The translations under genes and the position numbers were made by a program. The notes under the pieces are model-generated. The model worked only from the letters and a program-made list of their open reading frames with translations. It had not been told where the DNA came from and did no database searches. From Thermoplasmata archaeon (GTDB lineage Archaea; Thermoplasmatota; E2; JACPAO01; JAHFTW01), in assembly GCA_034667725.1 (NCBI GenBank), contig JAXDQS010000010.1:384001-448000 (forward strand): a stretch of 64,000 nt of DNA. The letters run 5' to 3'. Below are positions 10,531 to 48,177 of this stretch, in pieces (the first letter of the stretch is position 1; each line of letters begins with the position of its first letter).

Positions 10531-10822
10531 CGCCGACTGGACACAGATTCCACAGGGTTCTGTGGGAATCTTCCGAATCTGGGAAAATCAGTGCCCGTCG
10601 CGAGCGCCGACTGGACATAGGTTCCACAGGGTTCTGTGGGAATCTTCCGAATCTGAGTGAATCGGTGCTCGTCGCGGCCGATTGGACACAGATTCCACAG
10701 ACCATGGCCTTGGAGTTGGCGGGGCCTAGGAACAGAATTCCACAGATGGTCTGTGGGAATCTTCAGAATCTGAGGGAATCCGTGCTCGTCACGCGGCCGC
10801 CGGCTGGACACAGGTTCCACAG
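10531..10822. repeat. Tandem array of ~72-74 bp palindromic REP-like units
   Basis: Units start at 10531, 10605, ~10677 (interrupted) and ~10798 (partial); consensus GCCGACTGGACACAGATTCCACAG-N4-5-CTGTGGGAATCTTCCGAATCTG. Confidence 0.85.
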
Positions 10823-10843
10823 AGTGCTCTCTGCCTCCCAATA

Positions 10844-11028
10844 GCCTCCTGCGTCGGCCAGCGGTCGTCCCTCCGCTTCGCGTTCGGGGCGGAGCCGATT
10901 CCTTCTGCGTGGACGCCCCAGCTCGCTGCGCTCGCTGGGGGCAGTCACTTGAAACGAATCGTCTCCGCCTCCCACTGGCCTCCTGCGTCGGCCAGCGGTC
11001 GTCCCTCCGCTTCGCGTTCGGGGCGGAG
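10844..11028. repeat. Perfect 51-bp direct repeat (10844-10894 and 10978-11028), part of a hairpin element
   Basis: GCCTCCTGCGTCGGCCAGCGGTCGTCCCTCCGCTTCGCGTTCGGGGCGGAG occurs twice. Confidence 0.9.
10945..10968 (-). repeat. Synonymously recoded duplicate of the aCPSF1 3' end (AETIRFK-stop)
   Basis: 21/24 identity to 11054-11077; all differences at codon position 3. Confidence 0.85.
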
Positions 11029-11053
11029 ACCCTCGGTTCCCCGTTCGCTTCGC

Positions 11054-12973
11054 TCACTTGAACCGGATGGTCTCCGCGTTCTGCATCGCCCTGGCCTCGA
11101 TGCCGAACTTGGCCGTGATCGACTCCGCCAGGTCGATGCACTTCGACGCCTCGCCGTGGCCGGTGAGCACCAGCTTCGGCATGGGCTCCATGTTCTGGAT
11201 GAAGTTCATGAGCTGGCGGCGGTCGCAGTGGCCGCTGAAGCCGTCGATGGTCTCGACCGCCAGTTCGACGCGGACGTTGGTGGTGCCGCCCTTCTCCTGG
11301 AGCGGCATCTCGCGGTAGCCGCGCTGGAGCTTGCGGCCGAGGCTGCCCTCCGCGTTGAAGCCGACGAAGCAGAGCACGTTGCGCGCGTCGTCCGCCCAGT
11401 GCTTCATGTACTCCAGCACGGGGCCGCCGGTCATCATGCCGGAGGTCGCAAGCACGATGCAGGGGTCGGGGTCGCCGCAGATCCGCTGCCGCATCTCGTG
11501 GGAGTCGACGCGCTTAAACATCGGCGCCAGCAGCGGGTTGTCGTTCTGCTGGAAGATGCGCTTCTTGAGCTCCTCGTTGAGGTACTCGGGGTAGCAAGTA
11601 TGGAGCGCGGTGGCTTCCCAGATCATGCCGTCGAGGTAGACCGGCTGCTTGGGGATGGCGCCGGTGCGCATCAGCTCCTCCAGCACCAACATGACCTCTT
11701 GGCTGCGGCCGACGGCGAACACCGGGAAGATGGCCTTGCCCTTCCGCTCCGCGCAGGCTTGGAGGACCTTCTTGGTCTGCTCGGCGGCCTCGACGCGGGC
11801 GGGCTGGAGGTTGTCCTTGCCGCCGTAGGTGGACTCCACGATGACGGCGTCGAGGCGGGGAAACTTGTTGTGCGCCGGGTTGAACAGCCAGCTGCGCTCG
11901 TACTTGATGTCGCCCGAGAACGCCACGTTGTAGAGCCCGTCGCCGACGTGGAAGTGGCACACCGACGAACCCAGGATGTGGCCCGCGTCGTGGAAGGTGA
12001 GGCGGATATCGGGGCTGATGTCCGTGGTCTCGCCCCAGTCCACCGCGATGGTGTTCCGCAGCGCCGCCCGCACGTGCTCGGCGTCGAACGGCTTCGGCTT
12101 GCCCTGCGCCTCCGCCACCCGGATGTAGTCCATCGTGAGAAGCGCCATGATGTCGCGTGTCGGCGGCGTGCAGTAGACCGGGCCATCGTAGCCGTACTTG
12201 AACAGCAGCGGGACCAGGCCGCAATGGTCGAGGTGGCCGTGGGTCAGCACTACCGCGTCGAGGCTCGTGAACGGCTGCACCTCGCCCAGGTGGAACATCG
12301 GGGTCGCCGGGTCGTTCTCCTCGAACTTGACGCCACAGTCGACGAGGACCTTCGAGTCCTGCGTCTGCAGCATCGAGCAGGAGCGGCCGACCTCGCGCCA
12401 CGCCCCCAGCGCCGTCATGCGGACCCAGCGCTCGGCCTCGGGGGGCGCGGCGCTGCGGTGCATCCGCCGGCCGACGCGGCGCAGGAACTTGCGGCGCTCG
12501 TCCGCGACCGTGCGCAGGTACTCGCGCACCTCGCGCACGGTGCGGCTCGGGATGGGCGGCGTCCGCACCACCTTCGGGTTCCAGCCGACCTCGGCGCGGA
12601 TGCGGTTCAAGGTCGAGCCCTGCGCGCCGATGGCGACCCCCGGCCGCTGCGCCTCGATGGTGACCTCGCCGATGGCGGCGGCCCAGGAGAGGTCCGTGAC
12701 GCCCGCGTTCTCCGGCACGATGGCCTTGATGCGCTGCGCCGCCTCCTCCGGCGGCATCAGGACGGACGGGTCCGGCCGGACGGCGACGCGCTTCTGGAGC
12801 CCGCGGGCCAGCTTGCGGATGAGCTCGCCGTCGGCCGCGAACGCCTGCGGCGTCTTGGTGTAGAGGACCAGCTCGTGCGCCTCGAAGTCCAGATCGGTGA
12901 CGTCGACGCCGCGCGGCAGGATCCGGTCCGCCTGAGCGCGCATCTCCCGCAGGAGGTCTTCGACGTTGGCCAT
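11054..12973 (-). CDS. fttA: Beta-CASP ribonuclease aCPSF1 / transcription termination factor FttA
   Basis: N-terminal KH domains, REVGRSC, THGHLDHCG, AGHILGSS, ESTYG, FSGHCD; adjacent to proteasome beta as in many archaea. Confidence 0.97.
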   Translation of the reverse strand: MANVEDLLREMRAQADRILPRGVDVTDLDFEAHELVLYTKTPQAFAADGELIRKLARGLQKRVAVRPDPSVLMPPEEAAQRIKAIVPENAGVTDLSWAAAIGEVTIEAQRPGVAIGAQGSTLNRIRAEVGWNPKVVRTPPIPSRTVREVREYLRTVADERRKFLRRVGRRMHRSAAPPEAERWVRMTALGAWREVGRSCSMLQTQDSKVLVDCGVKFEENDPATPMFHLGEVQPFTSLDAVVLTHGHLDHCGLVPLLFKYGYDGPVYCTPPTRDIMALLTMDYIRVAEAQGKPKPFDAEHVRAALRNTIAVDWGETTDISPDIRLTFHDAGHILGSSVCHFHVGDGLYNVAFSGDIKYERSWLFNPAHNKFPRLDAVIVESTYGGKDNLQPARVEAAEQTKKVLQACAERKGKAIFPVFAVGRSQEVMLVLEELMRTGAIPKQPVYLDGMIWEATALHTCYPEYLNEELKKRIFQQNDNPLLAPMFKRVDSHEMRQRICGDPDPCIVLATSGMMTGGPVLEYMKHWADDARNVLCFVGFNAEGSLGRKLQRGYREMPLQEKGGTTNVRVELAVETIDGFSGHCDRRQLMNFIQNMEPMPKLVLTGHGEASKCIDLAESITAKFGIEARAMQNAETIRFK

Positions 12974-47652: not shown

Positions 47653-48012
47653 ATGCCCTTGCTTCACCGGAGTGAAGTGGCCCGGCTCCCCGTCCGCAAC
47701 GACTGCATCTGCACCGTCGGCGGCCTCATCGACCTCGTCGGCAAGAAGTGGACGATGTGCATCATCGTGACCCTGGGCAACCGCCCCGCCATCCGCTTCA
47801 ACGAGCTGCGCGACACCTTGGTCGGCATCAGCCCGCGCACGCTGTCCGAGACCCTCAAGGCGCTGGAGTCGGAAGGCCTGGTGCGGCGCGAGGCGTTCGC
47901 CGCCATCCCGCCCCGCGTCGAGTACCGGCTCACCGACGAAGGCGCCAGGCTGCGCGAGGCGGTGCGGCCGCTGATGGAGTATGCGGCAGGAAGGCCTGGG
48001 GCAGTCTGCTGA
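47653..48012 (+). CDS. HxlR-family winged-helix regulator
   Basis: C...LVGKKW, RFNEL, ISPRTLS, PPRVEYRLT. Confidence 0.9.
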   Translation: MPLLHRSEVARLPVRNDCICTVGGLIDLVGKKWTMCIIVTLGNRPAIRFNELRDTLVGISPRTLSETLKALESEGLVRREAFAAIPPRVEYRLTDEGARLREAVRPLMEYAAGRPGAVC

Positions 48013-48177
48013 ACGGGCGTGGAGGGTCGCGCGTCGGCGCGCGCCGAACGCGAAGCGGAGGCGATGGGTGGGTGGCTCGCGGAGCGAAAGCCACCCGCCA
48101 AGGGGTCCTAGGGGCGAAGCCCCTAGATGGGGTGCGCGGCTGGAAGGCCGGGGGCCGTCTGCTGAACGGTCTGCTGA
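48013..48177 (+). repeat. Hairpin element followed by a recoded duplicate (48136-48165) of the HxlR gene 3' end
   Basis: Core CCGAACGCGAAGCGGAGG shared with the 11 kb element; CTAGGGGC-GAA-GCCCCTAG hairpin; AAGRPGAVC-stop repeated. Confidence 0.85.

Follow-up and report, generated by a model that had tools for sequence, protein, structure and literature searches.

Tyrosine-integrase elements that insert at the 3' ends of tRNA or protein genes provide the gene with a replacement end and leave the native end at the far junction, with a fixed att core. In the hybrid genes of fungal mitochondria, a gene is fused in frame to a foreign C-terminus, with the native end left stranded downstream. An article on the mobile endonuclease open reading frames (ORFs) of fungal mitochondria mentions the creation of 'gene hybrids' by endonuclease-mediated horizontal gene transfer (PMC3787672). 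The WHO homing elements at FBA1 of Torulaspora and Lachancea yeasts are kilobase units that encode an endonuclease and have a single target gene; their arrival replaces the 3' end of this essential gene, the previous end is pushed downstream where it acts as a homology arm, and the newest unit is the gene-proximal one (bioRxiv 10.1101/2020.01.20.913210). In this study we analysed a 64,000-nt stretch of DNA (hereafter the window) from a Thermoplasmata archaeon (assembly GCA_034667725.1, contig JAXDQS010000010.1, positions 384,001 to 448,000), in which the gene for aCPSF1/FttA is followed on its own strand by hairpins and by a second, displaced copy of the gene's 3' end. On balance, we think it probable that two stacked, protein-less gene-end replacement cassettes make up the DNA behind aCPSF1, and that they entered by recombination from a diverged allele. 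We found no published description of gene-less cassettes replacing gene ends. As in WHO, the new 3' end lies upstream of the element and the old end downstream, judged from the polarity at an Orc1/Cdc6-like gene of the same genome, and the two ends are diverged alleles. Unlike the WHO units, the cassettes consist of 85-135 nt of hairpins without any ORF and have hit about 25 genes and tRNAs, whereas the fungal mitochondrial process involves an encoded homing endonuclease, takes place in organelles and has few targets.

The aCPSF1 protein is 74-87% identical to its orthologues in relatives of the same family and 55-63% identical to those in relatives of the order and class. The initial annotation of the window had reported that both copies of the gene end encode AETIRFK followed by a stop codon, with all differences at third codon positions, and that each copy is followed by a hairpin and by the same perfect 51-bp sequence; all of this was confirmed to the base (Table 1). 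The copies differ at 3 of 24 bases (ACC/ACG, ATC/ATT and CGG/CGT), and the offset between them is 109 nt, hence they are out of frame. The identity of the two 51-mers ends on both sides and does not extend one base further. The order within a unit is gene end, tip hairpin, antisense arm, spacer and second hairpin. When the 255-nt region was folded (z = -3.6 in comparison to shuffled sequences), each copy of the gene end formed the 5' side of a long hairpin and paired with its own antisense on the 3' side, and both antisense arms terminated at the first base of the duplication. The complementarity of arm 1 to copy 1 also exceeded that of shuffled sequences (z = 5.9). Moreover, arm 1 scored 13 against copy 1 and 10 against copy 2, whereas arm 2 scored 13 against copy 2 and 8 against copy 1. 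The arms at locus C2:63836 likewise preferred their own copies (19 vs 9 and 16 vs 8). From this preference of each arm for its own copy it follows that the gene end and its arm travel as one unit. Gene ends in this genome do not generally possess antisense arms, as the real scores equalled those of the controls over 1819 genes. The tips of the two aCPSF1 cassettes are unrelated in sequence. No ORF was found inside the cassettes, the interior of which is made up of 85-110 nt of hairpins, and searches of the genome with nhmmer and blastn revealed no copies of the aCPSF1 core other than the two local ones, apart from an 18-mer in the spacer.

Table 1. Coordinates, strand and basis of assignment of the features in the window.
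Feature	Position	Strand	Basis or remark
aCPSF1/FttA gene, 639 aa	11054..12973	-	Pfam KH_TffA, Lactamase_B, Beta-Casp, RMMBL; ORF list; orthologues
Copy 1, working aCPSF1 end (AETIRFK-stop, last 24 nt)	11054-11077	-	
Tip of hairpin H1 of cassette 1; begins directly 3' of the stop, holds a GCGAAGC mini-hairpin motif	11040..11053	-	
Antisense arm 1, complementary to copy 1 (16/18, one indel); fits copy-1-specific codons	11023..11039	-	fold and complementarity
First exact 51-mer: end of arm 1, spacer with the 18-mer common to alpha elements, 5' half and loop of H2	10978..11028	-	
Hairpin H2 of cassette 1, stem intact; separated from copy 2 by 3 nt (GAG, 10969-10971)	10972..10997	-	
Copy 2, displaced aCPSF1 end (AETIRFK-stop)	10945..10968	-	3 synonymous differences from copy 1
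Tip hairpin 2 (10902-10944) and antisense arm 2 (10889-10905); arm fits copy-2-specific codons	10889..10944	-	fold
Second exact 51-mer; the H2 stem 3' of it is broken by substitutions	10844..10894	-	
9-nt vestige resembling the first bases of a gene-end copy	10826..10834	-	by sequence resemblance, may be the remnant of an oldest, third copy or the right edge of a cassette
HxlR-family locus: gene 47653-48012, end 47983-48016, alpha three-hairpin element ~48017-48135, displaced copy 48136-48169	47983..48169	+	3 third-position differences

A less GC-rich palindromic repeat adjoins the cassette stack downstream (window positions 10531-10830, minus strand), with a 74-nt unit repeated 2.3 times in tandem and a further copy near 10750. 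Comparable palindromes of the CACAG/CCGCGG type occur 3' of aCPSF1 and of other genes in the relatives.

The window belongs to a 2.32-Mb metagenome-assembled genome (MAG) of 26 contigs with a GC content of 71% and a completeness of 90% (G000), and the relatives with which it was compared are uncultured Thermoplasmatota. A genome-wide tally of displaced gene ends had been proposed beforehand in the initial annotation. When the last 24 nt of 4369 ORF ends were sought in the 400 nt behind them with at most 4 mismatches, 21 downstream copies were detected, compared to none with reversed queries; a peptide scan using the last seven residues and the stop gave 25 matches vs 0-2 in five permutations. 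After filtering, about 17 protein genes with a displaced end were retained, in addition to several tRNAs, with inserts of 40-270 nt and duplications of 16-95 nt, a six-fold variation in length. The matches that were set aside concerned antisense ORFs inside repeat-domain genes (C3:261372, C4:86091, C5:10953, C5:25712 and C3:511589). The match at C4:13090 was rejected as a cassette, because the second copy terminates a separate downstream ORF and the match is therefore one to the tail of an adjacent gene; at this place (C4:12775-13406) the gene and the next ORF downstream end in the same acidic, Ala/Glu-rich ..GLGALFG tail, which we take to be that of the ribosomal stalk proteins P0/P1. Among the targets are FtsZ, a class II aminoacyl-tRNA synthetase, NusA, PolD DP2, ribosomal protein S15, a DRG GTPase, metabolic genes and several tRNA ends, and the identities of two further proteins, PolD DP1 and Orc1/Cdc6, rest on sequence motifs and not on a Pfam search.

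Many of the inserts belong to two conserved hairpin families, alpha (three hairpins, 12 copies) and beta. Direct repeats of 16-95 nt bound 15 of the 25 alpha and beta elements, and arrays repeat with periods of 87-134 nt. The 18-mer of the aCPSF1 spacer, which the initial annotation had named, occurs three times in the window, while 0.02 occurrences would be expected. The recurrence of the architecture at 48 kb, also claimed there, is real in that the end of an HxlR-family gene is duplicated with differences at third positions. However, the element at this locus is of a different subtype, namely a three-hairpin alpha element without an antisense arm, and has only the 18-mer in common with the aCPSF1 cassettes. 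The alpha-family profile does not reach the aCPSF1 core. Rfam gave no family match at either the aCPSF1 or the HxlR locus, and three weak sub-threshold matches were obtained elsewhere in the window.

The divergence between working and displaced ends was evaluated in 14 loci chosen by nucleotide criteria only, in which 112 codons were compared. Codon positions 1, 2 and 3 carried 1, 3 and 24 differences, respectively, and all 28 of them were synonymous, whereas 25% would be expected (P ~1e-17); with the addition of three end differences that had been lost to trimming, the proportion was 28 of 31. The synonymous changes included the exchange of one stop codon for another (TAG/TGA) as well as AGG/CGG and TTG/CTC, and in some pairs 6 of 24 bases differed while the peptide was unchanged. 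Such a pattern cannot come from a non-coding copy decaying in place; this implies that both copies were coding until recently, in separate lineages. That both copies had served as the coding end had been suggested in the initial annotation from the three differences at aCPSF1, and the further cases, with their differences concentrated at the third position, support this. In a hand count from the codon pairs, the codons ending in A or T, rare in this genome and probably the derived state, were split 12:12 between the copies at the differing sites, as would suit two coding alleles that evolved separately.

Translation of copy 2 by read-through was rejected, since the offsets between copies showed no frame preference across the loci. 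A diversity-generating retroelement was rejected as well: the third-position exchanges C/G, C/T and G/T are not confined to adenine, and the genome gave no match to PF00078. The synonymous-only differences and the conserved stops would be directly accounted for if both ends were in use, with the cassette being removed in some cells or transcripts by a rearrangement of DNA or RNA, so that copy 2 is translated and selected. However, apart from the lack of frame preference, there are no common splice-like or recombination-site motifs, distal copies decay (with loss of the stop in the relative G017), and displaced tRNA halves are non-functional alone. We therefore give this explanation very little credence.

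The direction of the replacement can be read at the Orc1/Cdc6-like gene, where the working end encodes ..RLT-stop and the displaced copy ..RIV-stop. As 10 congeners end in R[LI]V-stop and are thus matched by the displaced copy, the latter is of the ancestral type and the current end is derived. This polarity, with the new end upstream and the old end downstream, and the genome-wide tally support the suggestion of the initial annotation that a small enzyme-free element carries or swaps a replacement gene end. In the relative G001, the displaced Orc1/Cdc6 copy is 60 nt long and differs from the working end by K/R, H/N and I/L, which are natural variants between species. Empty sites, which were to be sought in relatives, were also found: aCPSF1 carries no insert in 12 congeners and in three metagenome contigs, all from other species; the contigs were retrieved by a metagenome scan for the aCPSF1 C-terminal peptide, and none of them contained a duplicate.

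Occupied sites were detected in relatives too, and five of the six targets tested recurred in other genomes. In G020, which belongs to a neighbouring family, an array lies behind aCPSF1 and is partly masked (C77; about 90-190 nt after the stop the sequence reads N). FtsZ is occupied in G007 and G013, where the last eight codons including the stop are duplicated and the differences are synonymous, except that G007 shows one Met/Val exchange at the boundary of the duplication. G007 also has an occupied PolD DP1 end, and a cassette at PolD DP2 is present both in G013 and in G017. In the latter genome the hairpin type and the boundary are the same as in G000, and the cassettes form a three-unit array whose members are the more decayed the farther they lie from the gene, the distal copy being without a stop. 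At aCPSF1 there are two units and a vestige, with the second H2 stem broken, whereas decay with distance is clear at PolD DP2 of G017. The end of the DRG GTPase gene was occupied only in G000 among 22 relatives with a readable gene end. In G006, 8 of 14 hairpins are bounded by repeats of 18-70 nt. Family f1 shows an enrichment of the hairpin motif, which occurs at background level elsewhere, and no cassettes were seen in the searched families f5 and f7.

Since the genome is a MAG and the length of the exact 51-mer comes near to k-mer sizes in common use, we considered that two strain variants of the gene end might have been joined serially during assembly. However, an independently assembled 248.9-kb JGI contig carries the same aCPSF1 structure, with 1 mismatch in 5917 nt. 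In addition, the junctions are non-homologous, the tips are unrelated, and MAGs of different studies show the architecture too, as do dozens of loci, which makes an artefact barely conceivable.

Several enzyme families were sought in G000. IS200/IS605 elements, PATEs and REP/RAYT systems insert without target duplication beside a motif of 4-5 nt and need a Y1 HUH transposase, and IS608 recognises its target through a short guide beside a hairpin that base-pairs with it. Like IS200/IS605-PATE and REP/RAYT, the cassettes are small, hairpin-bearing, non-autonomous repeats situated directly after genes; unlike them, they show long duplications and flanks without a common motif. Profile searches of the 90%-complete genome detected neither the Y1 HUH transposase (PF01797) nor the TnpB zinc ribbon (PF07282), although the positive controls worked, and they gave no IS110 DEDD, reverse transcriptase (PF00078) or Piwi/Argonaute either.

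Ordinary transposition of a small non-autonomous element, with staggered cuts behind the stop, would create a long target-site duplication that is identical at birth and diverges later. The presence of the alpha and beta elements at unrelated loci, frequently between direct repeats, agrees with this, and some pairs are indeed identical (44/44 at a tRNA and 33/33 at C10:110826). However, a non-coding copy should vary at all codon positions, whereas all scored differences were synonymous and stops were kept or exchanged for stops. Moreover, the duplication varies in length by a factor of six, neither terminal inverted repeats nor a transposase were detected, the arms match their own copy, and the displaced Orc1/Cdc6 copy is the ancestral one. 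Thus, we regard transposition of this kind as quite unlikely. A transposable element of the miniature inverted-repeat type (MITE) was likewise rejected, as the hairpins are internal, the two ends of the unit do not form inverted repeats, and the 16-95 nt duplication is not of fixed length. Insertion with long target duplication, described by Nobusato et al. (2000) and by Furuta, Abe and Kobayashi (2010), is known from bacterial restriction-modification inserts flanked by repeats of 46-423 bp, with no archaeal case retained (PMC2853133). The cassettes share with it the variable long direct repeats round a transposase-less insert and the uninterrupted target in relatives, but they contain no genes, and the survey in question describes no hairpin core, antisense arm or gene-end preference (PMC2853133).

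The occurrence of tRNA 3' ends among the duplicated targets, and the replacement gene ends that integrative elements carry, would also be compatible with scars of larger elements, i.e., integrase plasmids or proviruses that had entered at the 3' ends of genes and tRNAs and lost their interior, leaving remnants of attL and attR. Nevertheless, about 25 different targets have no core sequence in common, and the repeats, 16-95 nt in length, differ in sequence at every locus, in contrast to the fixed core of integrase elements. The repeats enclose related hairpin cores 60-105 nt in length, arrays have periods of 87-134 nt, no integrase is encoded in or near the unit, and the whole genome gave one weak match to the tyrosine recombinase profile (PF00589), far away on the contig. 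In our opinion, such scars are a highly improbable source of the cassettes.

Recombination from a cassette-bearing diverged allele was chosen as the explanation because it accounts for the synonymous-only pattern, the matching of arms and copies, the polarity and the recurrence, and from these we infer the donor, the route and the trigger as follows. The gene-adjacent copy is the working end, and the next copy would be an earlier working end pushed downstream. The donor would be the DNA of a diverged relative that already carried a cassette, and entry would take place by recombination, with the left crossover within the conserved gene body and the right crossover within the donor's displaced end, which would act as the right-hand homology arm. 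The recipient would thereby acquire the gene end and the hairpins of the donor, while its own end would stay behind as a non-coding copy. The copies would differ only synonymously because both ends had been under coding selection until the event, and displaced copies would turn over too fast for decay to become apparent. A break or template switch at the hairpins, or some enzyme, are candidates for the trigger.

Several points weigh against this explanation. A donor allele with the codons of copy 1 or copy 2 was found neither in the 12 congeners nor in the three metagenome contigs. Third-position identity to 14 relatives was flat along aCPSF1 and revealed no import tract, a comparison that is powerless here as synonymous sites are saturated. 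The right homology arm is only 24 nt long, and the 51-mers are identical though the gene-end copies differ by 12.5%, which requires a recent common source or local gene conversion. The boundaries vary between genomes (29 vs 60 nt at Orc1/Cdc6 and 24 vs at least 45 nt at aCPSF1). Ordinary recombination explains neither the alpha and beta cores at unrelated genes nor the exact coincidence of the arm's end with the boundary of the duplication, an outcome expected of a fold-back template switch.

The latter possibility belongs to a local origin of the structure, in which a snap-back template switch at the hairpin behind the stop copies the gene end backwards, giving the arm, and then copies it again, giving the duplicate; alternatively, the unit of gene end and hairpin is duplicated in tandem, and in either case non-synonymous changes in the spare copy are later removed, since gene conversion would transfer them to the essential gene. 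Besides the position of the arm, which snap-back synthesis predicts, the stable tips of the GCGAAGC type directly after stops are in accord with it, as is the fact that each copy, including the last, has its own hairpins behind it and that the 51-mers are identical. However, copies made locally would be identical at birth, and pairs with 6 of 24 differences are too diverged for policing by gene conversion. A spacer of about 50 nt and a second hairpin separate the arm from the next copy, the two tips are unrelated, and the ends in G001 differ by amino-acid variants found between species. We therefore consider a purely local origin rather unlikely.

A further reading, which we mention tentatively and consider unlikely, is that the cassettes represent a new class of protein-less mobile element with its own address. 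In such an element, the fold-back arm would specify the insertion point, a host enzyme or one encoded in trans would act on the folded form, and the spare gene end would spare essential genes and tRNAs, so that the element would behave as a miniature gene drive acting on conserved gene ends and moving among the species of one soil and groundwater family of Thermoplasmatota. In the folded single-strand attP used by Xer (CTX-phi type), a hairpin mimicking the duplex target is recombined by XerC/D at a dif-like core. Hairpin H1 does mimic the duplex target, but the targets here share no common core; the genome contains one XerA-like gene.

Other observations in the genome concern the ends of the inserts and their hairpins. 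Some insertions alter the last residues of the protein: the current end is RGG-stop and the old one RTP-stop at C3:174676-174778, where the left edge of the element itself provides the stop codon, and GGQ-stop has taken the place of GG-stop at C9:~700-800. A third hairpin family, gamma, is about 130 nt long, shares the GGGGCGNAGCCCC hairpin and is present in 5 copies (C1:203101, C1:207991, C6:11129, C10:4857 and C1:4700), none of which is flanked by direct repeats. This family may represent either an element in another state or a gene for a small RNA. The 5' halves of tRNAs are duplicated together with the upstream promoter regions, with the element in the opposite orientation (C2:79300-79500 in G000; L098 and L102 in G006). 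The case in G000 (C2:79412), in which the tRNA part is identical in both copies and the promoter part has diverged, argues by its arrangement for a process at the level of DNA and not of RNA.

Replacement of a gene end with stranding of the old one has been known from elements that carry a nuclease or an integrase. In the genome studied here, gene-less hairpins of about 100 nt leave the same footprint dozens of times, and the affected sites include tRNAs and the core genes for aCPSF1/FttA, FtsZ, both PolD subunits, Orc1/Cdc6 and S15. In practical terms, the duplications of gene ends can mislead gene callers, att-site finders and quality checks of MAGs. If a dedicated activity guided by structure or base pairing exists, it would represent a new mechanism of mobility and a possible tool for targeted insertion. 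If, on the other hand, host recombination alone is responsible, exchange between species over short homologies would be reshaping essential archaeal genes at their ends; what is stranded downstream would then constitute a dated record of these exchanges, and hairpin repeats could spread as modules flanked by homology.

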